Shown here in pieces: positions 2,918-63,631 of a stretch of DNA of 64,000 nucleotides. Below the pieces are notes generated by a model, which saw only the letters and a program-made list of their open reading frames with translations, was not told the DNA's origin and ran no database searches. Origin of the DNA: Candidatus Aminicenantes bacterium (GTDB taxonomy: Bacteria > Acidobacteriota > Aminicenantia > Aminicenantales > UBA8522); the NCBI GenBank assembly GCA_037444845.1, contig JBBILQ010000005.1:6185-70184 (forward strand). Reading direction: 5' to 3'. Numbering within the stretch: position 1 is the first letter of the stretch; the number at the start of each line of letters is the position of its first letter. Position numbers and translations under genes: made by a program.

Positions 2918-4423
2918 TTACTTCAGGAAGTCTGGAGGGAAGGTTTTCGGGTCTCTGCCGAAAACCTTTTTATAAACCCGAGGAAAGCGGTCTTTCCCGC
3001 CCAGGAGCATCAGGCTCGAGGGCATCACTTCCCGGGCAACGTCCGCCATTTTCCCGACAATCCTCCGGATGTCCCACTGCGCCGTCGCGTCCTGGCGCAG
3101 CCGGGAAATGTGGTAGAGCTCTCGGATGTTAACCTTGAGGATCGCCCGCCGTCTGTGGGCATTGGTCAGGACATAATCGGCAGCCTCTCCGGCCTCCCTT
3201 TTCAACCGGGCATACGCATCGTTCGTTTGCTCGATGACGGCCAGGAATTCCCCGGCTGCGCCGATGTCCTCGACAGAAGGGGGAATCGTCACGCCGAGCT
3301 CGGGGTCATACCTCTGCCTTGTCAGGGTGGCCATGCGGTGGCGCTTGAGCTGGGCAAAACAGGCAGCGGAAACGATCAGCTCAAAAGTCAGGTCCGCGTG
3401 CTCGAACTCCCGCAACGGAAAATCATAAAACTCCATGTGCTCGAGAGAAGATCTGATGAACTCGCTTTTCTCCGCCTGAGACATGTCGCGGACTTGACCA
3501 TGGCAAAACTCATAAGAACGGGCAGATACGGTGTGGATGAGCGCGGCCAGGATGCGGTCATCGCCGTCGGCCGTGTAACCGACGAGGCGGACAGCCCGGC
3601 GGTCGTCAGCCGGCCGGCGAAGGCCTTCCTGCTCAGGCTGGGGGAGCCTCTTGGCTCGCTCTTCCAGGCCGGCGCAAGTCTTTGAGTCAAAGTCGCCGGG
3701 CTCTGTGAAAAGAATGATCGACGGCGCCACCTCTTTGGCCAGGGCATAGATTTTTGCGTTAAGCTCTCGAAGCTCGGCCAGCTTTTTGGCGGCGAAGCGC
3801 CGGATGAGGAGCTCAAGATTACGGGCGTTGATGGTCATGCCCGCCTGTCCCTTTGTAGCCAGGCTGACGGCATACCGGGCATCCTCCTTGGCCCAACCAT
3901 CGAGGACGGGGTGATTCTTTGTATTCTGGGCAATATCCCTGTGCTTATTAAAAACATAAGGCTTGAGCTTCTTGTAAAGGCTTTCGTAAAGAGCGTTTTG
4001 GGCCCTGACCATCCGAACAAAAACTTCCTCCAGGCCGCTCTGCCTGATCTCCTCCGGGATGACAAAATCATCTCCCAAAGTGATGTAGCGTTGGGACTTT
4101 TCAGTGAAGGAGCAGAGCCGGAACTTTTCCACCTCCTCGAGCGCCAGACGGCTGAGGCCGATGAGGTCGAAGTTAAAGACAGCGTGCTCGGCGACCGAGT
4201 GATGGCCCATCTTAAATATGATGGTCTGGTTGGACCGCCTGGCCTTCTCCACCTCCTGGCGGGCTGCGGCCCTGAGCTCATCGATGGGCCGGGGGTCCCG
4301 GGAAATGCGGGCGTAGGCGGCAGAAAGCGTCTCTGGCGTCACATCGTCCCGGGGCGGAGCATGCCGCTTGAGGTCGGCGATGACTTCGCTGTCGATATTG
4401 TATCCGGCGAGGATTACTCTCAC
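2918..4423 (-). CDS. Tandem two-domain flavin-dependent thymidylate synthase (ThyX/Thy1)-like protein
   Basis: 501 aa, roughly two 250-aa halves, each with an EHxxF(T/N)F block. The N-terminal half has EKSQRY but its RHR is replaced by FRL. The C-terminal half keeps RHR (LKRHRMATLTRQRY) but the serine position is Thr. GTG start. Confidence 0.7.
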   Translation of the reverse strand: MRVILAGYNIDSEVIADLKRHAPPRDDVTPETLSAAYARISRDPRPIDELRAAARQEVEKARRSNQTIIFKMGHHSVAEHAVFNFDLIGLSRLALEEVEKFRLCSFTEKSQRYITLGDDFVIPEEIRQSGLEEVFVRMVRAQNALYESLYKKLKPYVFNKHRDIAQNTKNHPVLDGWAKEDARYAVSLATKGQAGMTINARNLELLIRRFAAKKLAELRELNAKIYALAKEVAPSIILFTEPGDFDSKTCAGLEERAKRLPQPEQEGLRRPADDRRAVRLVGYTADGDDRILAALIHTVSARSYEFCHGQVRDMSQAEKSEFIRSSLEHMEFYDFPLREFEHADLTFELIVSAACFAQLKRHRMATLTRQRYDPELGVTIPPSVEDIGAAGEFLAVIEQTNDAYARLKREAGEAADYVLTNAHRRRAILKVNIRELYHISRLRQDATAQWDIRRIVGKMADVAREVMPSSLMLLGGKDRFPRVYKKVFGRDPKTFPPDFLK

Positions 4424-4542
4424 GGCTTTTTACGATAAGAGCAGGAAAAGAAAATGTCAACTCACCGCCCCTAACTCGCTTATCCTCTCTCATTGATGAA
4501 TTTCTTGAAGTCATGTATTGTGGTTGGTGAAAGGAGCGAGAC

Positions 4543-5031
4543 ATGGTTAGCCTTGCCAGAGAGCCTGTGAGGAGACTTTTGGGCTACGCCGTTCGGGCCG
4601 AGATTGATTCCAGGAGGATTTACATGCAGTTAGCCAAACGAGTCAAGAATCCCCTCCTCAAGGAGAAGTTCCTAGTCCTGGCCTTCGAGGAAAAAAAGCA
4701 CAAGAAAGTCCTGGAAAACTTATTCGAGAGTCTTTATCGCGGAGAAAAGCTCCAGGTTCCTGAGAGCGTGTCTCCAAAGCTCCTCCCCGTTGTTCATCTC
4801 AAGCGCTCTTCTTCTCTTGTCGATATCCTCTACCAGGCCATGCAGGCGGAAAAGTCGGCCCAGGATTTTTATGCCGGCTTAGCCCGCAAGATCAGACCTC
4901 CCCAGAAGAAAATTCTCGAGTACTTGAGCCAGGTGGAAAGAAGCCACCACTTCATGCTCCGGAGCGAATACGCCATGGCTCAGCAGTTTGAGGATTATGG
5001 GGAGAGCGACATCGACAAGGTAGTTACCTGA
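4543..5031 (+). CDS. Ferritin-like diiron protein (rubrerythrin/erythrin family, no rubredoxin domain)
   Basis: 162 aa with two E...ExxH pairs (EEKKHKKVLE, VERSHHFMLRSE). AAGGAG ribosome-binding site 7 nt before the ATG. Confidence 0.65.
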   Translation: MVSLAREPVRRLLGYAVRAEIDSRRIYMQLAKRVKNPLLKEKFLVLAFEEKKHKKVLENLFESLYRGEKLQVPESVSPKLLPVVHLKRSSSLVDILYQAMQAEKSAQDFYAGLARKIRPPQKKILEYLSQVERSHHFMLRSEYAMAQQFEDYGESDIDKVVT

Positions 5032-49733: not shown

Positions 49734-51215
49734 CTATCTAAACGGGTTTTCGCCCGGGTAGAACATGCCTGCGGGCTGGTTAAAAAACACCTCTTCCACG
49801 CCTAACATCCGGACCGCCGCAAAAAGCGGTTTCCCGGCATGCAAGAAGGCCACCGCGGTGTGGTGGGGAAACCTCTTTTCGATCAAGACATGGCGATAGA
49901 ACCGGGCCATTTCTCTGACGGCGAAAACGCCGATGCCTCCAAAGGACTTCGGGTCGATGTCCAGGACTTCGCCCTCTGCCACGTAAGAGCGGAGAGTGGT
50001 TCCGGCCGTGGACTGGAGCCTGAAAATGGTCACCGCGCCCGGTCTGATGCGGCCTTCCATTGTTCCCCTCGTGATATCAGGCTCCTTGTCCCCCTCCATC
50101 AGCCTGTGCATGATGAGCTGGTATTTCAGGGCTCCGCCGGCCAAGCAAACCAGCGGTGTGTTGCCGCAATGGAATCCCATGAACAGGTCGGCGAGCTGGT
50201 AATCTTTGATTTTTTTCCCGGAAGCCTTCACCATGTCAGCCGGCACGGTGTTGTTGATGTCCAACAGTGTGGCGGGCAGCTCGGTCGCGCAGGTGGCCAT
50301 GTATTCGCTCAGGGCGCCGTAGATATCGACCTCGCAGGCGACAGGAATCCCCTTGGCCGCCAAACGGGAGTTGACGTAACAGGGAACGAACCCGAAATAT
50401 TTCTCGAAGGAAGGCCAGCACTTGTTGGCAAAAATGCCGTGCGAAGAAGCGCCGAGGTTGGCCTCAAAAAACATCATCAGGGCGATTTCGTACTGGGCCA
50501 GCTTCTCAAGGAGGTCGGGATAAGCCAGCCCCTTCCCGAGCTCTTTGGCCATGTCTCTGGCCACAGCCTTGATTCTTCGATCCCCGCGTGCGGCCTGGTA
50601 GATGTCGTAGAGGTCGAGCTCGCTGTTCTCCATTATTTCAACGCCCAAGTCATAAAGAGGCTTAAGGGGAGCGTTGCAGGCAAGGAAATCCTGAGGCCGG
50701 GGGCCGAAAGCAAAAACCTTGAGCTTTTTTAAGCCCGCGATGACCCGGGCCACAGGGATAAAATCGCCGATCATCCCGGCGACCTCGGCCGCCGTGCCGA
50801 CCGGATACTCCGGAATGTACGGGTTCAGACCTCTCAGGCCGATATTGTAACTTGCGCTGAGCAACCCGCAGAAAGCGTCCCCCCGGCCGCCGTACAGGTC
50901 TTTTCCCGTCTCCTCGGCTGCGGCCGCGAACATCACCGGCCCGTCAAACCGCTGGGCCAGGAGTGTCGCTGGGCCTTCCGGCCCAAAATTCCCGAGATAA
51001 ACGATAAGGGCGTTGATACCCCTGGTCTTGACCTCTTCCAGAGCTCTGAGGGCATCGCTTTCTTTCTCGACAACTGTCTTGATTTCCGTGATGGGTATTT
51101 TTTTTGCCCGGCAGGCTTCGGCCACGTTGACCCTTCTTTGCCTGGAAAGCTCGAGCGGGAAACAGTCGCGGCTCACGGCCACGATTCCGGGTTTAAGCCG
51201 GGGAATATTTGTCAT
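49734..51215 (-). CDS. L-arabinose isomerase-like protein (FucI/AraA superfamily)
   Basis: 493 aa. Lies directly downstream of araB-araD with a 4-bp overlap; the domain layout matches the sugar isomerase family. Confidence 0.55.
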   Translation of the reverse strand: MTNIPRLKPGIVAVSRDCFPLELSRQRRVNVAEACRAKKIPITEIKTVVEKESDALRALEEVKTRGINALIVYLGNFGPEGPATLLAQRFDGPVMFAAAAEETGKDLYGGRGDAFCGLLSASYNIGLRGLNPYIPEYPVGTAAEVAGMIGDFIPVARVIAGLKKLKVFAFGPRPQDFLACNAPLKPLYDLGVEIMENSELDLYDIYQAARGDRRIKAVARDMAKELGKGLAYPDLLEKLAQYEIALMMFFEANLGASSHGIFANKCWPSFEKYFGFVPCYVNSRLAAKGIPVACEVDIYGALSEYMATCATELPATLLDINNTVPADMVKASGKKIKDYQLADLFMGFHCGNTPLVCLAGGALKYQLIMHRLMEGDKEPDITRGTMEGRIRPGAVTIFRLQSTAGTTLRSYVAEGEVLDIDPKSFGGIGVFAVREMARFYRHVLIEKRFPHHTAVAFLHAGKPLFAAVRMLGVEEVFFNQPAGMFYPGENPFR

Positions 51216-51919
51216 TCCCTCCCTCCTCTTTTCTGGCCGTAATAGGCGCCGGAGCCGTGCTTTCGTTGATGATGTTTCTCCAGAAGATAGCGCGGGAAGA
51301 CAGCGCAGCGCCGGCTCAAAAGCAAGGTCCCGAAGGCCATTTTGGCAATTTTCTCTAAAGCCAGGCTATTCTCCACCGCTTCCCCGGGAGTCTTTCCCCA
51401 GGTGAAGGCGCCGTGCCCGGCCACAAGAACGCCGGGAATATCTTCCGGGCTCAGGCTCTGGAACCGCTCGACGATGACCAGACCCGTGTTTTTCTCGTAA
51501 TCCCGCTTGACTTCAGCCCGCCTCATGAAACGAGTGACGGGCACGGCTCCATAAAAAACATCCGCGTGCGTCGTCCCCAGGCAGGGGATCTCCCGGCCTG
51601 CCTGGGCGAAAATTGCGGCGTACTCGCTGTGAGTGTGGGCAACGGCAGCGATACCCGGAAAAGCCTTGTAGAGCTCGAGATGAGACGGCGTGTCTGAAGA
51701 AGGGACGAGGCTTCCCTCCACGCATTTCCCTTCGAGGTCGATGAGGACGATATCCGATGGCTTTAATTCCTTATAAGATACACCGCTCGGCTTGATGGCC
51801 ACCAGGCCTTTTTTCCGGTCAACTCCGCTGACATTGCCCCACGTGAGGGTCACCAGGTTGAGCCTGACCAGTTCCAGGTTGGCTCGCCAGACTTTCTCTT
51901 TGAGAGCCCGGAGCATCAC
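51212..51919 (-). CDS. araD: L-ribulose-5-phosphate 4-epimerase (class II aldolase fold)
   Basis: 235 aa with the metal-binding His block (AVAHTHSEYA). Confidence 0.8.
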   Translation of the reverse strand: MMLRALKEKVWRANLELVRLNLVTLTWGNVSGVDRKKGLVAIKPSGVSYKELKPSDIVLIDLEGKCVEGSLVPSSDTPSHLELYKAFPGIAAVAHTHSEYAAIFAQAGREIPCLGTTHADVFYGAVPVTRFMRRAEVKRDYEKNTGLVIVERFQSLSPEDIPGVLVAGHGAFTWGKTPGEAVENSLALEKIAKMAFGTLLLSRRCAVFPRYLLEKHHQRKHGSGAYYGQKRGGRE

Positions 51920-53628
51920 TCGGCCTTTCTCTGCCGGTCGCGGATGGCCAGCAGGTCTTTCATGACATTAAACATATTCCCCGTCCACTCCTTCGTGCCG
52001 AAAGCGTCATGGAGCTGGAGGTAGAGCCGATAGAGTTCCTTATAGACCTTGTGATTCTCTGCGTTCGGCCGGAAGGTTTCAGCCCTGACGCCGCACATGG
52101 CTCGCTGCGCCTCGATAAAATCGGCATGGCCGCCTCGCTTCTTCCCGGCGACGACAGCGCCGGCGATCGAAGCTCCAAGGGCGCAGGTCTGGGGCGAGCG
52201 GGCGATCTTCATTTCCCGGCCTGTGACGTCAGCGTAAACCTGCAGGACAAACGGGTTCTTTTCGGCGATGCCGCCGCAGTTGACGATCTCGGAAATTCTG
52301 ACGCCGTACTCTTCAAACCTGTTAATGATAGTCAGGGCGCCGAACGCCGTGGCCTCGATAAGGGCCCGGTAAACCTCCTCGGGCGTCGTGGCGAGCGTCT
52401 GGCCGATGAGCAGCCCTGCCAGCCGCTGGTCGACAAGGACAGTCCGGTTGCCATGATTCCAGTCCAGGGCTAAAAGGCCGGATTGGCCCGGCTTGAGTTT
52501 AGCTGCTTTAGCTGTCAGCGCCTCGTGCGCACCCTCGGCCGTCCCTCCCGGGTTGATGGAATGCACAAACCAGTTAAAGATGTCCCCAACAGCCGATTGT
52601 CCCGCCTCGAGTCCAAAAAAGCCGGGCAGGACCGAGCCGTCGACGATGCCGCACAGCCCTGGGATATCAGCTAACGCGTCCGTGTTGGGCCAGACGGTGA
52701 TGTCGCATGTGCTCGTCCCGAGAATCTTAACCAAGACGTCCGGCGCGACGCCCGCTCCCACAGCCCCAAAATGAGCGTCAAAAGCGCTGACCGCGACCGG
52801 AATGCCAGCCTCCAGGCCAAGTCGCCGGGCCCACTCGCCTGAAAGCCTTCCCGCCTCCGCATCAGAAGTGAAAGTTTTATCGTAGAGGCGGCCTCGGAGT
52901 TCTCCCAGCCTGGGGTCAAGCCTGGTCAGAAACTCCCGCGAAGGCAATCCTCCCCAGGCGTCGTTAAACATGGCCTTGTGTCCGGCCGCGCAGCGGCTCC
53001 GCTTCATGGTCAACGGGTCTGAGTTTCCCGTCAACAACCCGGGAATGTAGTCGCAGCATTCGACCCAGCTAAAAGCCGCTTCGAAAACCCGCCTGTCTGT
53101 CCGCAGGCAGTGGAAAATTTTGCTGAAGAACCATTCGGAAGAGTAGGTGCCGCCGCACTTGGCCAGATACTCGGGATGCTCCTTTCGAGCGAGCTCGGTG
53201 ATCTCCGCAGCCTCGGCAAAAGCCGTGTGATCTTTCCACAACCAGGCCATGGCGTTTGGATTATCCTTGAACTCATCCCTGAAGCTCAACGGCGTGCCGG
53301 CCCGGTCGACGGGAAATGGCGTTGAGCCTGTCGTGTCGATGCCGATGCCGATAATCTGCTCTTTCTTCAGGGTCGAGTCAGCCTTTTTCGCCTCGGCCAG
53401 GACCTTGCGCACGACTCGTTCGGCTCCCCTGATATAGTCCCCGGGATCCTGCCGGGCCAGGTTAGAATCAGCGGGGTCGAGGATGATTCCTGCCTGGCCA
53501 GTCTCGTACTCATGGACTGCAGCGGCTATCTCCCGGCCGTTGCCCACGTCAGCCAACAGAGCCCGGACAGAGTTTGTCCCGAAATCAAAGCCCAGGCTAA
53601 GGGCTCTTCCCTTCATTTCACCTTCCAT
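51916..53628 (-). CDS. araB: Ribulokinase (FGGY carbohydrate kinase)
   Basis: 570 aa. FGGY N- and C-terminal domains; the N-terminus reads LSLGFDFGTNSVRALL. Confidence 0.8.
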   Translation of the reverse strand: MEGEMKGRALSLGFDFGTNSVRALLADVGNGREIAAAVHEYETGQAGIILDPADSNLARQDPGDYIRGAERVVRKVLAEAKKADSTLKKEQIIGIGIDTTGSTPFPVDRAGTPLSFRDEFKDNPNAMAWLWKDHTAFAEAAEITELARKEHPEYLAKCGGTYSSEWFFSKIFHCLRTDRRVFEAAFSWVECCDYIPGLLTGNSDPLTMKRSRCAAGHKAMFNDAWGGLPSREFLTRLDPRLGELRGRLYDKTFTSDAEAGRLSGEWARRLGLEAGIPVAVSAFDAHFGAVGAGVAPDVLVKILGTSTCDITVWPNTDALADIPGLCGIVDGSVLPGFFGLEAGQSAVGDIFNWFVHSINPGGTAEGAHEALTAKAAKLKPGQSGLLALDWNHGNRTVLVDQRLAGLLIGQTLATTPEEVYRALIEATAFGALTIINRFEEYGVRISEIVNCGGIAEKNPFVLQVYADVTGREMKIARSPQTCALGASIAGAVVAGKKRGGHADFIEAQRAMCGVRAETFRPNAENHKVYKELYRLYLQLHDAFGTKEWTGNMFNVMKDLLAIRDRQRKAE

Positions 53629-56027
53629 TCGTGGATCCCTGCTGAGAAATTCTGCTGCAACTTGATTTCAAGGCGAAGCGCCTGGGTCCTGACGGGCCTG
53701 AACCTCATTATGTTAAAGGCGTCTTTTTCCAGGCCGTAGGGATCGAGGTTCTCGACAGGCCGCCATTCATCACCGGTTTTGTACAGGACCTGCCAGGCGG
53801 CCGGAACGCGGCATTCGCCCCGGCCCGTGTCGTCGTACCAGTAGACTTCAACTGCAGACACGGGAGCCGGGCGGGCGAAGTCATACTGAACCCATTCCGT
53901 GGTTCCCCTGGCAGGCCACCAGTGAAAATAAGGGCATTCCTGGTCGCTCGAGCTCGTTGGCTCCCGTTGATCATTAACGGCAAACGCAGGTCTGTCGCTC
54001 GAGGCGCTGACTGCGCTTCGCGAAGCGACCGTTGGGTTGGGCAGGACACGAGCTTTGGCGGCTTCCCTGGCAAGCCAAACAGCCATCTCCCCTTCCCCGC
54101 GGTGGGCCCAGGCATAATAAGGGATGGCTGTAAACTCCCGGCTGATGCTCTCCACAGAACCTGCCATCCGGCCCTCCCGAAGCGCTGCGGCTCCGCCCTT
54201 GACGACAAAGACGCCGTTGAGAAGACCATCCCGTTTCTCCGATTCGAGCGTCGCCTCGTCGGGCAGCACAAGGTTGCTCGCAAGGCCGTTGTTATCCGGC
54301 CATTCGGCACAGTAGACAAGAGGGCCGCGCTCCAGGGCGACCCTGCCCTCATCGCTTTTGACGGCCTGATGAGCCACTACCCGACGAACGGGCATCGGAA
54401 CATCGAGCTCGACAACATCCCCGCTCTTCCAGGCGCGCCGGACGACGGCATAACCCTGGCTGATTTCGAGCTCGATTTCCTGGCCGTTTGCCCGAAGGGC
54501 GATCGGGCTCTTTTCCTCATCAAGATAACGATAGAGATCGCCCGGCACCGGCTTGCCCAGGGCCCAGCCGGGAATCCGAAGAAGGAGACTAAACTCGGCG
54601 GGCCTCTCAAGAGCAAAGGAAACCATGACCTTCCCTTCCCAGGGATAGCGCGTTTCCTGCTCGACCCGGATCTTCTGTCCCCTGAAGTTCATGCTGGCGT
54701 TCCCTGCCGCATAGAGGTTGACGTACAGGGCATCATCCCTCGTTGCGTACATAAACCCGGGAACTTGAGGGATGAAGCGGGTGACGTTCGACGGGCAGCA
54801 AGCGCAGTTAAACCATGGGCTGCGTCGGTGCTGGCCAAAGGAGGCCAGCGGGTTGGGATAGAAAAACAGGTCGCCGCTCAACCCGATTCCCGAAAGGAGG
54901 GCGTTATAAAGGGTTCTCTCGAGGATGTCGATGTGCTTCGACTCTCCTGTGAGGAGGAACATGCGGTGATTCCAGAGGACAAACCCGATGGAGGCGCAGG
55001 TTTCACAGTACGCTGACGCGTTGGGAAGTTCATAATCAGGGCCAAACCCCTCGATGCCGCCCGCTGCGCCTATGCCGCCGGTGATGTACATCTTCTTAAA
55101 CACGATATTCTCCCAGAGTTTGTCGAGAGCTTCGAGGTAGGCTCTGTCGCCGGTCAGGGCGGCCACATCGGCCATTCCCGAATACATGTACGTAGCGCGG
55201 ACAGCATGTCCGACCGCTTCCGCCTGCTGGCTGACGGGTTTGTGGTCCTGGGAGTATTCGCCGTAGAGCTTTCTCTCCTTGGCGTTTCCCCGTTCAGCAA
55301 GAAAGAAATTGGCCAGCTCCAGGTATTTCTTTTTTCCGGTCAGGCGGTAGAGCTTGACCAGGCCGATCTCGATCTCCTGGTGGCCGGGAACATCGTGCCT
55401 CTTGCCCGGGCCAAAAACGTTTAAAATCAAATCAGCGCTCTTGAGCGCCACGTTAAGGAGGTTCTTTTTCCCCGTAGCCCGGTAATGGGCCACGGCTGCT
55501 TCATAAAGGTGTCCGAGATTGTAAAGCTCGTGGCTCATGTAGAGGTTGGACCAACGCTCCTTGCCCACCCAGTCCACGGGCGGATGAGCAGGGTCGATCG
55601 TCCGCGCCGTGTAGAGATACCCATCGTCCTCCTGGGCTGCAGCGATCTTGGCGATGAGCTCGTCCACGTATTTCTCAAGCCCCGGGTCGGGGTGCGTCAT
55701 CAGAGCATAGGATGCTCCTTCGATGACCTTGAAGACATCAGAATCGTCGAAGGGATATTTGGTGCAAAAGGAGCCTTCTTTCAGGCCTGCGGCGATCTCG
55801 AAATTTGCGATTCGGCCGGTCGTTTCACACTGTTTGAAGGCAAACGGGATGGTGACGGCGCGGTTCGTCTCAATCCTCGGCGCCCAGAACTCGTCAACCA
55901 GCTTGACTTCAGTAAAGAGAACCGGGCTAAGAGGGTATCCCGATTGAACCGCTTTCTTGCAAGAAACCCCAGAACCCAAGATGCCCAGAATGGCGATGGC
56001 AAAACAAGGCCATTTTGTCCTTTTCAT
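53613..56027 (-). CDS. GH127-family beta-L-arabinofuranosidase-like lipoprotein with a C-terminal F5/8 type C (discoidin) domain
   Basis: Lipoprotein signal (LGILGSGVSC). The Zn/Cys motif NCACCPSN is characteristic of GH127 (DUF1680). A discoidin-like domain forms the C-terminus. Confidence 0.7.
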   Translation of the reverse strand: MKRTKWPCFAIAILGILGSGVSCKKAVQSGYPLSPVLFTEVKLVDEFWAPRIETNRAVTIPFAFKQCETTGRIANFEIAAGLKEGSFCTKYPFDDSDVFKVIEGASYALMTHPDPGLEKYVDELIAKIAAAQEDDGYLYTARTIDPAHPPVDWVGKERWSNLYMSHELYNLGHLYEAAVAHYRATGKKNLLNVALKSADLILNVFGPGKRHDVPGHQEIEIGLVKLYRLTGKKKYLELANFFLAERGNAKERKLYGEYSQDHKPVSQQAEAVGHAVRATYMYSGMADVAALTGDRAYLEALDKLWENIVFKKMYITGGIGAAGGIEGFGPDYELPNASAYCETCASIGFVLWNHRMFLLTGESKHIDILERTLYNALLSGIGLSGDLFFYPNPLASFGQHRRSPWFNCACCPSNVTRFIPQVPGFMYATRDDALYVNLYAAGNASMNFRGQKIRVEQETRYPWEGKVMVSFALERPAEFSLLLRIPGWALGKPVPGDLYRYLDEEKSPIALRANGQEIELEISQGYAVVRRAWKSGDVVELDVPMPVRRVVAHQAVKSDEGRVALERGPLVYCAEWPDNNGLASNLVLPDEATLESEKRDGLLNGVFVVKGGAAALREGRMAGSVESISREFTAIPYYAWAHRGEGEMAVWLAREAAKARVLPNPTVASRSAVSASSDRPAFAVNDQREPTSSSDQECPYFHWWPARGTTEWVQYDFARPAPVSAVEVYWYDDTGRGECRVPAAWQVLYKTGDEWRPVENLDPYGLEKDAFNIMRFRPVRTQALRLEIKLQQNFSAGIHEWKVK

Positions 56028-56208
56028 CCGCCTAACCTCCTCATTTTCCTGGCAGGAATTCCTATTCTATCACCTTTCTTTGATCACCGCCAACCCGCAA
56101 AACCCGCCAGCGGCTCCATCCGGAGTCTCTTTGAATTCGCCTGCACCTTTGTTTTTTCCTCTAACGAGCTCGCAGGGGATCCTGTATTCACCATCAAAGA
56201 AATCGCTT

Positions 56209-58965
56209 CTATTTGACCGGGACAGTCTGAGGCCCTATGGTCCAGCCCCTCCGGTCTTTGATGAACACCTTTCGGCTGAGCTTTTTTCCTCCAGCTTCGA
56301 GGTTGACGACGTATTCGCCCGGATCGACGAGCTGGCCTCTCGACCGGTCCCAGCCTGCCTCGCCCACCTCCTCTTTTGTCGGCGTGGCCCTCATATCCCA
56401 GAGCACAGCGTTCAGGCCAGGGTCGGTTTTTCCGGAGATCTCCCGGAGGACCTGGCCGTAGGGGTCAGTGATCGTGATTTTGACCTTATCCTTTGGCTTT
56501 TCTTTAAGATAATAATTGAAAGTCACGGCGTTTGGCTCGTTGGGAGTGGCCAGGTGCCTGTCCCCCATGAGCCGGTAGTTCCCCCATCCCCTCGTCATCC
56601 ACTGGGTGCGAGGTTCAACCTCAAAAAGATAAACATCTTCATCCAAGACTTTATCGTTGAGCTCCTGGAGCGGCGAGACGTCCGTCACGAAAACGCCGCG
56701 GCCGTAGGTTCCCACGACGAGGTCGTTCTCGCGGGGATGAACGAGAAAGTCTTTGACCGGAGCTGACGGCAGGTTGTTTTTCAGCCGCACCCACGTCCCG
56801 CCGCTGTCGATGGAGACGAAAACGCCGCCGTCAGACCCCAGAAAAACGAGATCCGGATTCTTCCGGTCTTCGAAGACGACGTTCACCGGGAATTCAGGCA
56901 GGCTGCTCCCAAGACTCTTCCAGGTTGCTCCATAGTCCTCCGTCTTATAAACAAACGGCCGGAAATCGTCGTTGCGAAAACCGGTCTTGGCCACGTAAGC
57001 CTTGCCTTCTCTGTGGTGGGAAGCGAAGACCCGGCTGACCCAGCGGTCTTCGGGCGCGCCCGCGCGGCTCAAGTTTGCCGTCAGATCCGACCAGTTTGCT
57101 CCGCTGTCGCGGGTCAGCCAGACTTTGCCGTCGTCCGTCCCCACCCAAATGAGCCCGGGCGAGAGCGGAGATTCGGATATGGTCGTGACCGTGCAGAACG
57201 TGATATGGCCCCGGCCCGCCGTCTTTTCGGGGTCGTTAAGGGTCAGGTCCTGGCTAATCTCCTGCCAGGTGTCGCCGCGGTTAAACGACCGCAGGAGCAC
57301 CTGAGCGCCGGTGTAGATAATCCGGCTGTTGTGCGGCGAGATATGGATGGGCGGGGTCCAGTTGAACCTGTAAGGGGGTTTCCCTTTTTCTCGGACAGGC
57401 TGAATATTCGTCCGCATGCCGAGTTTCTGGTCCACCCGGCTGTGGCCGCCGAACTGATACGTGTTATAAACCCAGCGGCTATCCTCAGGATCGACGACGT
57501 TGACCATTCCGTCCTGGACGCCGACGGTCACCCAATCCTCCAACGTGACTTCGCCCGACCAGGCGTTCGACGGCCCTTTCCAGGAGTCATGGTCCTGGAG
57601 GCCGCCGTAGATGTTATACGGCTCTTCCATGTCCACGCCGACGGCGTAGAACTCGCCGAGAGGGATGTTGTAGAGATGATCGCACGTCTTGCCGCCGTCA
57701 TAAGAGATGTAGACCCCGCCGTCGCTGCCGAAGAGCATCCGGTCGGAGTTCTCGGGGTCAATCCAGAATGCGCGCACGTCGCCAAAGGCCGAGGCAAAGA
57801 GCGTCGGAGGCCAGCCTAAGTTCTTCCAGGTTTTTCCGCCGTCATAGGAATAGGCAATGGCGATGCCGGTAATATAAACATTCTGATCGTCGTTGGGATC
57901 AACGCATATCTGGTTAAACGAGTAAGCGGCTTTGCCGGAGACATCGTCCCGGTCTGAGTTCATTTTTTTCCAGGTCGCTCCGGCGTCGTCAGACCGGTAG
58001 ACTTCGCCTGCGATGGCCCTCGGCCGCGGCTCAATCCCGCGGCGGCGGTCTTCCTTTGCTTCCTCCTCGGTTGGCGGACGCATGTTGGCATTTTCGACGA
58101 CGGCATAGACGATGTCCGGGTTCTTGCGGTAGAGATCGACGCCGATCCGGCCGATTTTTCCCGAGGGAAGCCCGCCGCCGAGCCGCTGCCAGGTTCGGCC
58201 TGCATCCGTTGTTTTGTAGATGCCGCTTTCTGGCCCGCCCTCCTCAAAATGCCAGGGATAGCGGTATTTTTCGTAGGCCGCGGCGTACAGAATGTCGGGG
58301 TTTTTCAAGTTCATGGCCAGGTCAATGACGCCGACCTTTTCGTTGATATAAAGAACCCTCTCCCATGATATCCCGCCGTCCATTGTCTTAAAAACTCCGC
58401 GCTCATCGTTAAACGAAAAAAGATGGCCCATGGCTGCCACGTAGACGACGTCCGGGTTCTTGGGATGAATGACAATCCGGGCGACGTGATGGGAATCGCG
58501 GAGTCCCATGTTCGTCCAGGTCTTGCCGCTGTCAGTGGATTTGTAAACGCCGTCCCCGCGATGGGAGCTCCGCGCGTTATAGGCTTCGCCTGTCCCCACC
58601 CAAAGGATGTCCGGGGTGGAGGGAGCCACGGCGATAGCGCCGATGGAGAGGTACTCCTGGCCGTCAAAGACGGGCTCGAATGTCGTGCCGTTGTTCGTCG
58701 TCTTCCAGACGCCCCCGTTTCTTGTGGCCACATAGAAAGTATAAAGGTGGGCTTTTGCTGGCGCATCGGGCACGGCAAAACCTGTCACCCAGGAGCCGCA
58801 GCGAAAAGGCCCGAGGTTGCGGAAGGTGAAGTTCTTGAGGAGCGCTTGACCGAAGCTTGGCCTGTCTTCCGCTCTGACAAAATCGATAGAAACGATAAAA
58901 ACTATCGGAATAATAAAAATTAACCTTGCCGCCAGAAAACCGGGCATTCGCTGGTTTGCCTTCAT
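56209..58965 (-). CDS. Secreted BNR/Asp-box repeat (sortilin/Vps10-like) protein, putative glycoside hydrolase
   Basis: Ten or more Asp-box repeats (STDSGKTW, TMDGGISW, TTDAGRTW, SDDAGATW, SYDGGKTW, SFNRGDTW, TRDSGANW, TEDYGATW, SIDSGGTW). Signal peptide; the probable ATG is at 58965. Confidence 0.6.
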   Translation of the reverse strand: MKANQRMPGFLAARLIFIIPIVFIVSIDFVRAEDRPSFGQALLKNFTFRNLGPFRCGSWVTGFAVPDAPAKAHLYTFYVATRNGGVWKTTNNGTTFEPVFDGQEYLSIGAIAVAPSTPDILWVGTGEAYNARSSHRGDGVYKSTDSGKTWTNMGLRDSHHVARIVIHPKNPDVVYVAAMGHLFSFNDERGVFKTMDGGISWERVLYINEKVGVIDLAMNLKNPDILYAAAYEKYRYPWHFEEGGPESGIYKTTDAGRTWQRLGGGLPSGKIGRIGVDLYRKNPDIVYAVVENANMRPPTEEEAKEDRRRGIEPRPRAIAGEVYRSDDAGATWKKMNSDRDDVSGKAAYSFNQICVDPNDDQNVYITGIAIAYSYDGGKTWKNLGWPPTLFASAFGDVRAFWIDPENSDRMLFGSDGGVYISYDGGKTCDHLYNIPLGEFYAVGVDMEEPYNIYGGLQDHDSWKGPSNAWSGEVTLEDWVTVGVQDGMVNVVDPEDSRWVYNTYQFGGHSRVDQKLGMRTNIQPVREKGKPPYRFNWTPPIHISPHNSRIIYTGAQVLLRSFNRGDTWQEISQDLTLNDPEKTAGRGHITFCTVTTISESPLSPGLIWVGTDDGKVWLTRDSGANWSDLTANLSRAGAPEDRWVSRVFASHHREGKAYVAKTGFRNDDFRPFVYKTEDYGATWKSLGSSLPEFPVNVVFEDRKNPDLVFLGSDGGVFVSIDSGGTWVRLKNNLPSAPVKDFLVHPRENDLVVGTYGRGVFVTDVSPLQELNDKVLDEDVYLFEVEPRTQWMTRGWGNYRLMGDRHLATPNEPNAVTFNYYLKEKPKDKVKITITDPYGQVLREISGKTDPGLNAVLWDMRATPTKEEVGEAGWDRSRGQLVDPGEYVVNLEAGGKKLSRKVFIKDRRGWTIGPQTVPVK

Positions 58966-59137
58966 CCTTTTACCATCCCGCGACAATTCCGTTCTCCTTT
59001 CATTTCTTTTTTCTCTCTTATAGTACAGTTAAGAGCCAGTGTCAAAACCCCGGCCCGAAGCAGATGCCGTCCTTGCCATTGTTTGATGCCTTGATCTGTG
59101 CTATAAGCTAACAAAAGGAACATGAAGGAGGGAGTGA

Positions 59138-60304
59138 ATGAAGAAAAACAGAGGCCTTTATCTCAGCGTGGCAATCATGGCCGTCATCCTGGTCAGTTTC
59201 TTTTCCTGCAAAGGCGAGAAAGCCAAACAGCAAAAACCATTTGAAGGACTCATTAAAATGGACATTCGAAAACAATCCTTCGGCAGGCTGCCCGACGGGT
59301 CCGAGGTCGAAGTGTTCACCCTGACCAACAGCCACGGACTCAAGGCCAGGATCATGACCTATGGCGCGACCCTTGTCTCCCTCGAAGTGCCGGACAAGAG
59401 CGGGGAACTAACCGATATCGTTTTGGGCCACGACTCTCTGGAGGGCTATCTTGACCCGGCTCGAAACCCCTACTTCGGCTCGATCGTCGGCCGGTATGGA
59501 AACCGAATCGCTCGGGGCAGGTTCACTCTCGACGGCGTCGAATACCAGCTCGCTGCAAATAACGGCGCAAACCACCTCCACGGCGGGGTCAAGGGGTTCG
59601 ATAAGGTCCTCTGGACGGCCGAACCCATAAAGGAGGAAGCCGCTGTCGGAGTCAAGCTCCGTTACCTGAGCCGAGACGGGGAGGAAGGCTACCCCGGGAA
59701 TCTGATTGCAACCGTGATTTACTGGCTGACAGAAGCGAACGAGTTACGAATCAGCTACGAAGCCGAGACCGACAGGCCCACTCCAGTCAACCTTACCCAT
59801 CACAGCTACTTCAACCTGGCCGGGCAGGGAGAAGGCGATATCCTTGGCCATGAACTGATGCTTAACGCCAGCCACTTCACTCCTGTTGACGAAGGCCTCA
59901 TCCCGACAGGCGAGGTCCGTCCCGTCGCGGGAACGCCCTGGGATTTCACCATCCCCAGGGCTATCGGCGCTGAGATCGCCGCCGTCCCTGGCGGATACGA
60001 CCACAATTTCGTCCTGCGCGACGGCGAAGGGACGCTCAGGCTGGCGGGCCGCGTCGTGGAACGCGCGAGCGGCCGCGTGATGGAAATTTACACCATAGAG
60101 CCGGGAATCCAGTTCTACTCGGGAAATTTCCTGGACGGCACAATCACCGGCAAGAGCGGAAAAGCCTACCGGAAGCATTACGGGTTCTGCCTGGAACCGC
60201 AGCATTTTCCCGACTCGCCGAACAAGCCTGACTTCCCCTCGACGATCCTTCGCCCCGGCGAGAAATACACGAGCCTGACCGTCCATAAATTTTTCACCAG
60301 GTAA
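59138..60304 (+). CDS. Aldose 1-epimerase (mutarotase), lipoprotein
   Basis: Lipobox (FFSC), then the GalM fold blocks (GATLVSL, HGG.KGFD). Confidence 0.8.
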   Translation: MKKNRGLYLSVAIMAVILVSFFSCKGEKAKQQKPFEGLIKMDIRKQSFGRLPDGSEVEVFTLTNSHGLKARIMTYGATLVSLEVPDKSGELTDIVLGHDSLEGYLDPARNPYFGSIVGRYGNRIARGRFTLDGVEYQLAANNGANHLHGGVKGFDKVLWTAEPIKEEAAVGVKLRYLSRDGEEGYPGNLIATVIYWLTEANELRISYEAETDRPTPVNLTHHSYFNLAGQGEGDILGHELMLNASHFTPVDEGLIPTGEVRPVAGTPWDFTIPRAIGAEIAAVPGGYDHNFVLRDGEGTLRLAGRVVERASGRVMEIYTIEPGIQFYSGNFLDGTITGKSGKAYRKHYGFCLEPQHFPDSPNKPDFPSTILRPGEKYTSLTVHKFFTR

Positions 60305-60428: not shown

Positions 60429-61139
60429 GTGATGAAACTCAGTTTTAACCAGCCGGCGTTCATTCCGTGGGGCGGGTTTTTCGCTCGCCTGATGTCCTCC
60501 GACAAAATGGTTCTCCTCGATGAGACCATCCTGGCCCGCGGTTTCACGTACGTCAACAGAAATCGCATCAAAGGACCCGAGGGAGAGGTCTGGATAACCG
60601 TGCCGCTCAAGCGCAAGGGCCGCGGCCGGCAGAAGATAAGAGACATCGAAATCTACGAAAAAGAAAGGTGGGCCAAAAAATTCTTGCTGACTCTCAAACA
60701 TTACTACGGCAAATCCGTCTATTTTGAGCCCGTCTTCGCCGACATTCGCGCGGCCGCGGAGAATCCTGGAGAAAATTTTCTACCTCTAACACGGGCCCTC
60801 CTTGATATCCTGAAAACTGGGTTGGGCATCGAGACGGAGCTGATTCTCCAGTCCCGCCTCGGCATCGCCGGCAGGGGCACTCCCCTGCTCGTTTCCATCG
60901 CCAAAAAGCTCGGCGCTCATGAAGTCATCCTGCCTTATTTTTCGGAAAAAGCGATAGATTGCGCTCAGTTCAGGGATGAACATATCCGGGTGAGGCTGTT
61001 GCGCTATTTGCCGCCCCAGTATCCTCAATTCTGGGGTGATTTCCTCATGAACCTCTCAAGTCTTGACTTGTTGCTGTGCTGCGGCCGGGACGGGCGCGCG
61101 GCCATCGAAAAGGGCATCCGCTTTTGTGACCTGCCATGA
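60429..61139 (+). CDS. WbqC-like family protein
   Basis: The NQPAFIPWGGFF...NRNRI...TVPL...YF...QF...LSSLDLLLCCG pattern matches the conserved WbqC-like blocks. GTG then ATG at 60432. Confidence 0.7.
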   Translation: MMKLSFNQPAFIPWGGFFARLMSSDKMVLLDETILARGFTYVNRNRIKGPEGEVWITVPLKRKGRGRQKIRDIEIYEKERWAKKFLLTLKHYYGKSVYFEPVFADIRAAAENPGENFLPLTRALLDILKTGLGIETELILQSRLGIAGRGTPLLVSIAKKLGAHEVILPYFSEKAIDCAQFRDEHIRVRLLRYLPPQYPQFWGDFLMNLSSLDLLLCCGRDGRAAIEKGIRFCDLP

Positions 61140-61155
61140 AAGGACTGGTGACAAG

Positions 61156-61812
61156 ATGAAAAAAAGCCTGATCGAATCTGATGCTTTTCAGAAGAAATCA
61201 CGGGAGAGTCTTGAGAAGCTGAAGGAGTTCAGCAAGAGGCGCGCTTTTGTGTTCATGCCTCAAAGCGCTGCTCTTCTCATCGTCGATATGCAGAGGTATT
61301 TTCTGGACAGGCGCTCGCACGCTTTTATTCCAGACGCTCCTCTGATCACAGGCCAAATCAAAAATCTGTCAGCAGCATTCCTGAAAATGAATTTGCCGGT
61401 TATCCTCACGCGCCACATCAACACCCAGAGAAACGCCAAACTCATGGGCAAATGGTGGAAAGACGTCATCACGGAAAAGAGCAGGCTGAGCCACGTCATC
61501 CCCGAATTAGATTTCCAGGGGGCGACTGTAATCAAAAAAACCCAGTATGATGCCTTTTACCGGACCAATCTCGAGAATATATTAAAAAGAAAAAAAGTTA
61601 AGCAGGTTGTCATAACGGGAGTGGCGACCCACCTCTGCTGCGAGACCACGGCAAGGTCTGCCTTTATGAGAGGATTCACAGTCTTCCTGCCCGTGGACGG
61701 GACAGCGACTTTCGCGGAAAGTTTTCTTGAGGCGTCACTCCTCAACCTCGCTCATGGCTTCGCTATCCCCGTGCTCTGTGAGGAGCTGATGGACCGAATG
61801 GAGGTGTCTTGA
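61156..61812 (+). CDS. Isochorismatase-family cysteine hydrolase
   Basis: The start is the internal ATG at 61156 (MKKSLIES). LIVDMQ, the catalytic-Cys block ITGVATHLCCETTARSA, and the typical length. Confidence 0.7.
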   Translation: MKKSLIESDAFQKKSRESLEKLKEFSKRRAFVFMPQSAALLIVDMQRYFLDRRSHAFIPDAPLITGQIKNLSAAFLKMNLPVILTRHINTQRNAKLMGKWWKDVITEKSRLSHVIPELDFQGATVIKKTQYDAFYRTNLENILKRKKVKQVVITGVATHLCCETTARSAFMRGFTVFLPVDGTATFAESFLEASLLNLAHGFAIPVLCEELMDRMEVS

Positions 61813-62705
61813 TGATACCTGTCACGGATGTGGCCATAATCGGAGCAGGGCCTGCCGGAGTCTCAGCCGCCATTCAATTGAGGCGGTATGGCATCGAATT
61901 TATCGTTCTCGAAAAAGAGAGAATCGGAGGACTGCTGCTAAACGCGAACCTCGTAGAAAACTACCCCGGCTTCCCTGGGGGCATTCCGGGTCAGGATCTC
62001 GTCAGGCTTTTGGAGAGCCACCTGGAAAATTCCGGAGTTCACGTCTCATTCCAGGAAGTTCTGGAACTCGATCATGACGGGAGCGTTTTTATTATCAGGA
62101 CAAACGGGGGAGCGCTGGCTTCCCGGATCGCGGTGATTGCCTCGGGCACTGTTCCCCTCAGGCTTACGCAGGCCGTTCCCAAGGAGATAGAAAGCCGTAT
62201 TTTTTATGAAATTGTCCCGCTGGCCCAGGTTTCGGGCAAAAAAATTGCCGTCATCGGCTCAGGTGACGCCGCCTTTGACTACGCGCTGAGCCTCTCTCAA
62301 AAGAACGAGGTTCTCATCCTCAACAGATCGGAAAAAATCAAATGCCTTCCGCTCCTCTGGAAAAGAGCCATGGAGGTGTCAACAATCTCATATCTCGAGA
62401 ATCTCCAGGTCACAACCATCAACCAGGCTGATAGCGGGCTGCTCCTCTGTGGTCGCAGCCCTCATGAGAAGCGTGACATCCATGTTTCCTTTCTTGTTGT
62501 GGCCGTGGGAAGAAGGCCGAATCTTGATTTCTTGAGCCAGAATCTTAAAAATAACCTGAAGGAATATAGAAAAGAAAGGTTGCTTTATATGGCCGGTGAT
62601 GTTAAAAACGGCATTTACAGACAGGCTGCCATATCTGCCGGTGACGGAATCAAGGCGGCCATGGAAATCTTCAAGGAAAAAAAGGAGGCTCAGTCGTGCG
62701 CATAA
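61809..62705 (+). CDS. Thioredoxin-reductase-fold FAD/NAD(P) flavoprotein lacking the redox-active CxxC (ferredoxin-NADP reductase-like)
   Basis: VAIIGAGPAG, ENYPGFPGGI (a TrxB-like block), and a second GxGxxA (VIGSGDAA). There is no CATC/CxxC. A 4-bp overlap links it to the neighbouring genes on both sides. Confidence 0.6.
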   Translation: MMIPVTDVAIIGAGPAGVSAAIQLRRYGIEFIVLEKERIGGLLLNANLVENYPGFPGGIPGQDLVRLLESHLENSGVHVSFQEVLELDHDGSVFIIRTNGGALASRIAVIASGTVPLRLTQAVPKEIESRIFYEIVPLAQVSGKKIAVIGSGDAAFDYALSLSQKNEVLILNRSEKIKCLPLLWKRAMEVSTISYLENLQVTTINQADSGLLLCGRSPHEKRDIHVSFLVVAVGRRPNLDFLSQNLKNNLKEYRKERLLYMAGDVKNGIYRQAAISAGDGIKAAMEIFKEKKEAQSCA

Positions 62706-63631
62706 TTGCCAAAACAGGCCGGGAAGACGTGGCCATGGTTTATATCGGAGAAACAGGAAAAGGAAACTTTATTGAATTCGTAGAATCTCTCCAGCCTCCC
62801 CTTCCCATAGAGGAAAAATGGGTTTTGACTGTTTCGACGCTGCAGGGATGCCCTGTCTGCTGCCGTTTTTGTGATGCGGGAGGATTCTACAAAGGAATTC
62901 TGACCAAAGACGAGATTATTTCCCAGATTGATTACCTGGTAGAGAGAAGATTTCCTGAGAAAAAGGTGCCTGTTAAGAAGTTCAAAATTCAGTTTGCCAG
63001 AATGGGTGAGCCTTCTTTCAACCCCGATGTCCTGGAAGTGCTTGAGTGTCTGCCTGAATTATACGATGCGCCGGGGCTTATTCCGTCCTTCTCCACCGTT
63101 GCTCCAGCAAGTCCGCATGATTTTTTCGAAAGATTGCTAAAAATAAAGAACCTAAAATATGCCAGGAGCTTTCAACTTCAGTTCTCTGTCCATTCCACAG
63201 ACGATCAGGCGAGAGACTGGCTTATCCCGGTCAAAAAGTGGAGCTTTGAAGAGATCGCAGCGTTTGGAAGGAGATTCGCCGATGGCGGAGGCAAAAAAAT
63301 AACCCTCAATTTTGCCCTGGCAGAGGGACTGCCGGTTGACCCCTGTCGGCTCTTGAAATACTTCTCCCCCGATACATTTCTGATAAAAATTACCCCCGTC
63401 AACCCGACGCTCCAGGCTGCAAGGAACCGGATTTCTTCGCTGGTTCCTCATCCTGATGGAGAGAGAATCATCTCTGACCTGAGGAAGGCCGGTTATGAAG
63501 TTATGCTCAGTATCGGAGAACTGGAAGAGAACCGTATCGGAAGCAATTGCGGGATGTATATCGCCGCCTATGAAAAGACCCGCCAGCTCACAGGCGGAAG
63601 CTATGCCTATGAGATCAAAAGATTCTCTTAA
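62696..63631 (+). CDS. RlmN/Cfr-like radical SAM enzyme, N-terminally truncated and lacking the Cys118-equivalent
   Basis: VSTLQGCPVCCRFCDAG...ILTKDEIISQ aligns with the RlmN VSSQVGCALECKFCST...NLRVSEIIGQ block. MGEPSFNP matches the MGMGEPLLN block. The C-terminal NCGMY aligns with the RlmN AACGQL methyl-carrier Cys. There is no N-terminal ~70-aa domain, and a Thr sits at the resolving-Cys position. Confidence 0.65.
   Translation: MRIIAKTGREDVAMVYIGETGKGNFIEFVESLQPPLPIEEKWVLTVSTLQGCPVCCRFCDAGGFYKGILTKDEIISQIDYLVERRFPEKKVPVKKFKIQFARMGEPSFNPDVLEVLECLPELYDAPGLIPSFSTVAPASPHDFFERLLKIKNLKYARSFQLQFSVHSTDDQARDWLIPVKKWSFEEIAAFGRRFADGGGKKITLNFALAEGLPVDPCRLLKYFSPDTFLIKITPVNPTLQAARNRISSLVPHPDGERIISDLRKAGYEVMLSIGELEENRIGSNCGMYIAAYEKTRQLTGGSYAYEIKRFS

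Follow-up and report, generated by a model that had tools for sequence, protein, structure and literature searches.

The radical-SAM gene at the locus

The window analysed here is a 64,000-nucleotide stretch of DNA from a Candidatus Aminicenantes bacterium (assembly GCA_037444845.1, contig JBBILQ010000005.1, positions 6,185 to 70,184 of the forward strand). Close to its end lies a gene for a 311-residue radical S-adenosylmethionine (SAM) enzyme which had been described, in a sequence-only reading of this DNA, as an RlmN/Cfr homologue that keeps the methyl-carrier cysteine but is missing both the N-terminal domain and the resolving cysteine. We report that the protein encoded here is built on an RlmN-type scaffold, that its one-cysteine active site is conserved and that, in the family of the window gene, it is accompanied by obligatory flavoprotein and hydrolase partners. 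The features of the gene are as follows.

62696..63631 (stop codon included), plus strand: one-cysteine RlmN-like radical-SAM enzyme, 311 residues, identified from the open reading frame (ORF), Pfam, hidden Markov model (HMM) matches and fold
62683..62688, plus strand: AGGAGG resembling a Shine-Dalgarno sequence, 7 nt upstream of the GTG codon, within the 3' end of the preceding gene
62828..62830, plus strand: Thr45 codon ACT, equivalent by alignment to the resolving Cys118 of RlmN
62849..62872, plus strand: C52-x3-C56-x2-C59, the [4Fe-4S]/SAM cluster motif, invariant in the family alignment
62873-62875, plus strand: Asp60, immediately after the cluster motif, a hallmark of the one-cysteine clade by its conservation
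63548..63550, plus strand: Cys285 codon TGC in IGSNCGM, equivalent by alignment to the methyl-carrier Cys355 of RlmN (AACGQL)

The GTG codon at 62696 is the first start past the in-frame stop, and homologues, most of which begin with ATG, align from residue 1 over the N-terminus M-[KR]-I-I-A-K-T-G. A 100% identical copy of the protein is present in NCBI data. An AlphaFold2 model, built on the alignment, has a mean predicted local distance difference test (pLDDT) of 89.3 and a predicted template modelling score (pTM) of 0.89, and its confidence drops only near the C-terminal cysteine loop. The gene is thus intact and full-length, and is neither truncated nor wrongly started, since about 300 full-length relatives share its architecture and none of them carries a cysteine at position 45. 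The sequence-only reading had pointed to another start codon or a frameshift upstream of 62696 as a possible source of the missing cysteine. Such a start or frameshift, whether it restored the cysteine or the N-terminal domain, was excluded, as no start precedes 62696 in the frame, the upstream DNA belongs to a conserved flavoprotein gene, the end of which overlaps the beginning of the radical-SAM gene by 10 nt, and close homologues are themselves about 310 residues long. The possibility that the gene is a truncated, frameshifted or decaying rlmN can therefore be given next to no credence. Only its shorter length in comparison with RlmN speaks for it, while the intact ORF with its Shine-Dalgarno-like sequence, the identical protein on record, the thousands of homologues of about 310 residues, the confident model and the conserved overlapping gene upstream all speak against it.

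Relationship to RlmN and Cfr

In a Pfam scan, Radical_SAM was the sole match to the protein (29.4 bits). Its top NCBIfam match was RlmN (TIGR00048), with 46.9 bits (E 1.8e-12) against a cutoff of 290, and the Cfr models TIGR04432 and NF000424 scored 31.3 and 33.6 bits against cutoffs of 550 and 530, respectively. At 46.9 bits against 290 the window protein is therefore not RlmN. All chains returned by a phmmer search of PDB sequences were those of RlmN or Cfr (3e-7 to 7e-3), and in a Foldseek comparison of the model against the PDB the best match was RlmN 3rfa (E 3.6e-13, TM-score 0.68), followed by Cfr at 1e-8 and by the remaining radical-SAM folds at 1e-5 at best. When a profile of 40 homologues was aligned to E. 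coli RlmN with hhalign, the alignment spanned RlmN residues 109-360 (probability 91.6%) and paired T45 with C118 and C285 with C355. The phmmer register agreed, with the query LTVST lying opposite LAVSS of the C118A RlmN crystal constructs. The query enters the RlmN model at about position 78, and the N-terminal helical domain of about 75 residues is therefore absent; the beta-strand extension before the core is retained, and the AlphaFold2 model has just three beta-strands ahead of core strand 1. In Cfr and RlmN the helical domain has been proposed to bind RNA (PMC2836569).

Cysteines were inventoried in a family alignment of 205 sequences, in which only C52, C56, C59 and C285 proved invariant. 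Cys285 was found in 205/205 sequences, within the family motif IGSNCGQ (IGSNCGM in the window protein), whereas position 45 was occupied by Ile (138), Thr (44), Met (10), Leu (8), Val (3) or Ser (1) and by Cys in none. Cysteines 55, 118 and 217 of the window protein were not conserved. No other conserved cysteine is available as a resolver, either in the radical-SAM enzyme or in its flavoprotein partner. Class A methylases are defined by a resolving cysteine seven residues before the cluster motif together with the carrier cysteine (PMC9692996). The window protein has the single radical-SAM domain with CxxxCxxC and the RlmN-type fold of class A, and it has the carrier equivalent C285, but the resolving position is occupied by T45. 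The homology, the retained carrier cysteine, the threonine at the resolving position and the missing N-terminal domain of the sequence-only reading were thus all borne out, through the multiple alignment and the structural comparison that it had called for. The protein is a real, full-length sister of RlmN and Cfr and a member of neither family.

The one-cysteine clade

The protein database holds more than 6000 relatives of the window radical-SAM protein. The best 120 are all about 310 residues long, three of them near-identical (83-100%) and the others 58-69% identical, and their named sources include WOR-3, Zixibacteria, Cloacimonetes, Bacteroidota, Marinimicrobia, Aminicenantes, Latescibacterota and Thermoplasmata. 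A set of 80 genomic loci adds Thermotogae (Thermosipho, Fervidobacterium), Methanospirillaceae, Methanoregulaceae, Anaerolineales, Acetothermia, Chrysiogenales and others. A search that covered 1.84 billion cluster representatives exhaustively yielded 97 at E<=1e-30; the number rose to 343 at E<=1e-10 and to 1245 at E<=1e-3. Among about 300 full-length sequences drawn from all groups, sister groups included, not one has a cysteine at -7 from the cluster motif, and about 98% of the full-length clade sequences keep the C-terminal CG[QNM]. Two residues or residue pairs are characteristic of the clade: an Asp after the third cluster cysteine (304/314 sequences) and a K-W pair at -11/-10 from the cluster motif (281/314; Lys41-Trp42 in the window protein). 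The position of Asp60 is S, A or G in E. coli RlmN, the 6fz6 protein and a two-cysteine phage protein.

The one-cysteine state is not peculiar to the window gene; it is the conserved condition of a clade of thousands in bacteria, archaea and phages, and no closer relative of the class A methylases RlmN and Cfr is known than this clade. We are close to certain that the gene belongs to a distinct one-cysteine clade, as opposed to being RlmN or a truncation of it. JGI labels many family members, archaeal ones included, 23S rRNA (adenine2503-C2)-methyltransferase, and for members of the clade this label is almost certainly wrong. Our literature search found no description of a one-cysteine RlmN-like family and no characterised member.

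A conserved three-gene module

ORFs were called in 83 related loci and compared with the genes of the window. The genes upstream of the radical-SAM gene in the window are listed here.

61809..62705, plus strand: flavoprotein of the thioredoxin reductase (TrxR) fold, binding flavin adenine dinucleotide (FAD) and NAD(P)H and without CxxC (Pyr_redox_2/3, TIGR01292, PDB match)
61156..61812, plus strand: isochorismatase-family cysteine hydrolase, with a likely ATG start at 61156 inside the ORF 61063..61812 (PF00857, 133.8 bits)
60429..61139, plus strand: WbqC-like gene (PF08889, 184.8 bits)

The module consists of the isochorismatase-like hydrolase, the flavoprotein and, in last place, the radical-SAM enzyme. 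A flavoprotein homologue lies immediately upstream on the same strand in 81/83 loci, and its stop overlaps the radical-SAM start in 66/82, most commonly by 4 nt. The hydrolase homologue was present in 61/78 loci having sufficient upstream sequence, and in the window its last 4 nt are shared with the beginning of the flavoprotein gene. In the window's family, the genes of the module are translationally coupled.

The flavoprotein scored 146.7 bits against TIGR01292, below the cutoff of 343, and its best PDB match was TrxR 4zn0 (1.9e-30), with TrxR-type ferredoxin-NADP+ reductases at 3e-12. It keeps both dinucleotide-binding motifs, the position of the TrxR CxxC reads E-I-V-P, and no cysteine is conserved across 77 homologues. 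In the hydrolase the Asp-Lys-Cys triad is conserved and an unusual LCCE motif is present; the best PDB relative is EntB 2fq1 (1.5e-19), and weak NCBIfam matches are to the ureido/amide hydrolases BiuH and RutB. Cysteine hydrolases of this family usually have Cys-Val where the partner hydrolase has the two cysteines of LCCE. The second of the two adjacent cysteines is kept in 90% of 51 homologues.

The WbqC-like gene shares the strand of the hydrolase gene, from which it is separated by 16 nt, and is probably co-transcribed with the module in the window. NCBIfam has no model for it, and the 83 other loci all lack it; being adjacent in the window only, it was dismissed as a module member. When the 83 loci were clustered, no further conserved neighbour emerged; what recurred was synteny within a lineage, as with UvrD, MurA, EF-G and S7/S12 in Bacteroidales. 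Likewise, among 55 genes directly flanking the module that were typed with Pfam, no family occurred in more than two loci, and there were scattered singletons such as BioY, Ham1 and Macro. The sole recurrent neighbour is adenine phosphoribosyltransferase (APRT), in 5 of about 85 loci and in two arrangements: about 120-140 nt downstream of the radical-SAM gene in L067, L070, L075 and L084, and upstream of it at L101:524-1075. The loci with APRT come from Chrysiogenales, Aminicenantes and one metagenomic contig with a flavoprotein::radical-SAM fusion.

PADLOC gave no relevant match, and a reading as anti-phage defence was dropped. Neither queK/nucleosidase nor QueT/QrtT nor tgt was found in the window or among the sampled immediate same-strand neighbours of the 83 related loci; such components were seen only in fusions of a sister group. 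An Rfam riboswitch scan of the window, of 8 related loci and of the sequence upstream of one QueT-like fusion yielded none, and hence no hint of regulation or substrate. A cobalamin riboswitch (87.3 bits) was seen in a Thermosipho metagenome-assembled genome (MAG) at L056:836-1028 on the minus strand, about 7 kb from the module and on the opposite strand to it, and is probably unrelated. Ahead of the module, window positions 49734-60304 hold a sugar-utilisation cluster that is unrelated to the present finding; on its minus strand it comprises genes for an L-fucose-isomerase-like protein, a class II aldolase, an FGGY kinase, a GH127 beta-L-arabinofuranosidase and a large BNR/sortilin-repeat protein, followed by an aldose 1-epimerase gene on the plus strand.

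Gene fusions and sister groups

Fusions of the flavoprotein to the radical-SAM enzyme were found in P0125 (625 residues, from a 7-member cluster), P0145 and P0173, and fusions of the radical-SAM enzyme to a C-terminal isochorismatase-like domain in P0155, P0159, P0160 and P0193. The radical-SAM enzyme is thus fused in nature with each of its partners, and we conclude from this that the three module proteins work together. In 3/4 of the isochorismatase fusions the catalytic cysteine has been lost from the hydrolase domain. The domains concerned, those of P0159, P0160 and P0193 (P0160 lacks the Asp as well), may to judge from these residues be non-catalytic binding or scaffold domains.

A sister group at 30-35% identity contains fusions of a QueT-like component to the radical-SAM enzyme (P0248), some of which carry in addition a C-terminal methylthioadenosine/S-adenosylhomocysteine (MTA/SAH) nucleosidase (P0253, P0262). 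The nucleosidase part of P0253 scored 223.9 bits against a cutoff of 169. P0253 is encoded at L096:6001-8445 in a Bacilli MAG, where its NCBI name covers the nucleosidase only, and no preQ1 riboswitch was found upstream of it. MTA/SAH nucleosidase frees adenine from SAH, MTA or 5'-deoxyadenosine, and it removes SAH and 5'-deoxyadenosine, which are the two by-products of class A chemistry.

When the radical-SAM part of P0253 was used as the query, it retrieved a large group of proteins of about 318 residues from prophages and phages, among them Lachnospiraceae prophages and Bacteroides phage Versailles, which corresponds to phrog_24834. Against the profile of phrog_24834 the window protein reached 105.6 bits (E 5e-30; positions 56-321 of 336), which is more than double what it scored on RlmN. 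True members score 357-418 bits and PHROGs has no curated cutoff; the score points to a related sister family rather than to membership. This phage group gave 263 matches in viral contigs, and a census of 80 viral loci revealed no conserved neighbour, although an isochorismatase-like gene follows one member of the group at two loci (L092/L093). In one lineage of Lachnospiraceae prophages (loci L089-L091, about 3774-4772) the one-cysteine gene is preceded by a gene of the PAPS-reductase family and an ORF of 64-66 residues; DNA methylase and SNF2 helicase genes surround them, and this may be a nucleic-acid modification region.

A further phage protein, of 320 residues, is encoded by Stenotrophomonas phage ANB28 (L095:5881-6840; PQ434692.1 33911-34870). 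It is annotated as RlmN and lacks the N-terminal domain but keeps both catalytic cysteines, with Cys at -7 (VICCSTQSGC) and GGGCGQL. Loss of the N-terminal domain and loss of the resolving cysteine are therefore separate events. From its motifs the ANB28 protein looks like a minimal two-cysteine class A enzyme of phages. Its gene sits among phage tRNA genes, and similar genes are present in Vibrio, Salmonella, Xanthomonas and Aeromonas phages.

Proposed mechanism and alternative explanations

In RlmN and Cfr, one SAM methylates C355 and the 5'-deoxyadenosyl radical from a second SAM takes a hydrogen from the S-methyl group (PMC9692996). The resulting thiomethylene radical adds to C2 or C8 of adenine, C118 acts as the base that triggers fragmentation of the cross-link, and the cysteine radical left after fragmentation requires one electron, the source of which is still unknown (PMC9692996). 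The overall picture to which we would give an even chance is that the one-cysteine enzymes act in a class-A-like manner on a substrate that is not ribosomal and is probably nucleobase-like, and that they complete the reaction without a second cysteine. Cys285 would be methylated by one SAM, as in RlmN; the 5'-deoxyadenosyl radical of a second SAM would turn the methylated residue into a thiomethylene radical, and this radical would add to an sp2 carbon of the substrate. The adduct would then be released without a second thiol, by a function intrinsic to the radical-SAM enzyme, for which the clade-specific Asp60 and the Lys41-Trp42 pair before strand 1 are candidate residues nominated by their conservation. 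The flavoprotein most likely passes electrons from NAD(P)H to the cluster and/or to the cysteine radical, and the hydrolase may act on the substrate or on the product, at an amide or ureido group.

The resolving function is assigned to the radical-SAM protein itself because stand-alone phage members share the one-cysteine layout. The sequence-only reading had offered three ways out: that the chemistry is resolved differently, that it is resolved by a partner protein, or that the enzyme does something other than methyl transfer to RNA. As a general proposition this stood, and partners that are fused or coupled to the enzyme do exist, as do relatives joined to a transporter component; a partner acting as the resolver is, however, unlikely in general in view of the stand-alone phage enzymes. 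The only conserved cysteines among the partners are the catalytic cysteine of the hydrolase and its neighbour in LCCE. A resolving cysteine supplied in trans was set aside, as the hydrolase cysteine is lost in 3/4 fusions and the phage relatives are partnerless. The substrate is probably not rRNA, and more likely a small nucleobase-like molecule, because the helical domain is missing, the clade occurs in archaea and relatives are fused to the substrate-binding component of an energy-coupling factor (ECF) transporter. A purine is our leading guess, since RlmN and Cfr act on adenine, APRT adjoins the module at five loci and the fused nucleosidase releases adenine.

Several points weigh against this picture. 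The clade has no characterised member, and methylation of Cys285 is carried over from its alignment with the RlmN residue; the conserved cysteine could instead be a hydrogen-atom donor or the site of a thiyl radical. The roles suggested for Asp60 and Lys41 likewise derive from their conservation. The hints at a substrate are weak: APRT adjoins the module in just 5 of about 85 loci, there are only a few QueT-like fusions, all in the sister group of 30-35% identity, and there is no riboswitch in the window, in the 8 related loci or upstream of the one QueT-like fusion scanned. Loss of the hydrolase cysteine in 3/4 fusions may mean that hydrolysis is not essential. The median isoelectric point (pI) of the family, 8.4, is compatible with binding of nucleic acid, although pI is uninformative as a proxy.

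Of the other explanations, one dispenses with methyl transfer altogether. Here the 5'-deoxyadenosyl radical would drive a C-N or C-C cleavage or a rearrangement of an imported nucleobase derivative, as in QueL, with Cys285 as hydrogen-atom donor or radical relay, the flavoprotein re-reducing the enzyme and the hydrolase trimming the product. That relatives carry a QueT-family transporter component and a nucleosidase as fused domains follows the logic of the queK-qrtT-queL genes of C. difficile (PMC11130926, PMC11570991), the APRT neighbours suggest base salvage, and the resolving cysteine needed for class A methyl transfer is missing throughout the clade. It is the methyl-carrier loop and core of RlmN, however, that the C-terminal CGQ motif and the core resemble most; QueL (Q186P0) was filed by those who discovered it under the general signature IPR006638, which is uninformative on kinship with RlmN, and neither tgt nor queK nor a preQ1 riboswitch lies near the window gene, in the 8 scanned loci or at the QueT-like fusion locus. 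We regard such a reaction as possible but on the whole doubtful. Less credible still is an adenine C-methyltransferase of RNA or DNA that would bind nucleic acid without the helical domain and resolve its cross-link with a non-thiol base. RlmN and Cfr are nearest to the family by sequence and by fold, JGI attaches the 23S rRNA (adenine2503-C2)-methyltransferase label to many members, the two-cysteine phage protein at L095 indicates that the N-terminal domain is not obligatory, and the phage sister genes are located in early or DNA-metabolism regions. Set against this, the scores are far under the RlmN and Cfr cutoffs, and coupling to a hydrolase and a flavoprotein, like fusion to a transporter component, is unexpected for an RNA methylase. 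The family is also found in Thermoplasmata and methanogens, while an early survey recorded RlmN/Cfr as absent from Archaea except for one species (PMC2836569). This explanation is accordingly improbable in our estimation.

The sequence-only reading had further raised the idea of a single-turnover cross-linker, or suicide enzyme, whose thiomethylene radical, once added to a target, would remain covalently bound to it. RlmN variants at C118 do trap the cross-link (PMC9692996), and the clade has no cysteine at this position. However, purifying conservation in the clade is strong (identity holds at 50-69% over many bacterial phyla and archaea), the clade has invariant polar residues of its own near the cluster, and it is coupled to an electron-supplying flavoprotein, and for these reasons an enzyme of multiple turnovers fits better; moreover, the module contains no candidate target gene. 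The idea thus gained no support, conservation and operon coupling being more in keeping with a catalytic enzyme, and it appears highly improbable.

The class-A-like reaction without a second cysteine could be carried one step further, to a distinctly unlikely but consequential proposal. The one-cysteine clade would then be a new mechanistic class, in which thiomethylene addition is completed without a thiol, through Asp60 as an acid/base residue and, in the window's family, reducing equivalents from the flavin, and in which free purine-like bases are C-alkylated or remodelled. If true, this would be a radical-SAM/flavin hybrid of anaerobic bacteria, archaea and phages and, for example, a source of C-methylated adenines. 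2-Methyladenine is known as a lower ligand of cobamides; its link to the clade is a suggestion from this background only.

Significance

Class A methylases are defined by a two-cysteine mechanism, and here is a clade that keeps the carrier cysteine and never has the resolving one. Either it uses a thiol-free variant of the textbook mechanism, or the RlmN scaffold has been recruited for other radical chemistry. The function of the family, as we infer it, is an uncharacterised chemistry that probably acts on something other than the ribosome, since the RNA-binding domain and the second catalytic cysteine are always absent and the gene for the enzyme is linked to those for a flavoprotein and a hydrolase. 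With these partners, backed by the fusions, it makes up a defined three-protein system that is open to reconstitution. A wrong RlmN label would also mislead inferences from metagenomes on 2-methyladenosine (m2A) and on Cfr-like resistance genes.

Comparison with known systems

The closest solved fold is that of RlmN, the dual-specificity RNA m2A methyltransferase (3RFA, 5HR7), to which the window protein aligns end to end over RlmN residues 109-360. The two share the CxxxCxxC, MGEP, S-x-H and N-P motifs and a mobile C-terminal loop with CGQ at the methyl-carrier position. In contrast to RlmN, with which identity is only about 19-24%, the window protein has no N-terminal helical domain, its clade has Ile or Thr in place of Cys118, an Asp after the cluster motif and a K-W pair before strand 1, and its genomic context is a hydrolase and a flavoprotein. 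Cfr (9P0P), the 23S rRNA A2503 C8 methyltransferase, has the same class A fold and gives a weak HMM match (33.6 bits), but the window protein lacks an equivalent of Cfr C105 as well as the N-terminal domain.

At the level of families the best match is phrog_24834, a phage family with function unknown whose members, at about 318 residues, are in the same length class. It has the one-cysteine layout, with Thr at -7 in 119/120 sequences, a C-terminal CGN, and the KW and FCD hallmarks. It differs in that identity is about 30-35% and the genes stand alone in phages or prophages, without the flavoprotein.

QueL of C. difficile (CD1684, Q186P0) is a radical-SAM enzyme of a salvage pathway, and its substrate is a free modified purine base, queuine, which it converts to preQ1 (PMC11130926, PMC11570991). 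Its context includes a nucleosidase and an ECF transporter component, and a QueT-like component and a nucleosidase occur as fusions with relatives of the window protein; the window module, in contrast, lacks queK, qrtT and tgt as neighbours and has no preQ1 riboswitch. The resemblance is one of function only, and we take it as no more than a lead. Finally, the partner flavoprotein shares the two-Rossmann FAD/NAD(P)H fold of thioredoxin reductase and of the TrxR-type ferredoxin-NADP+ reductases, but it has no CxxC disulfide, and it always comes paired with or fused to the radical-SAM enzyme.

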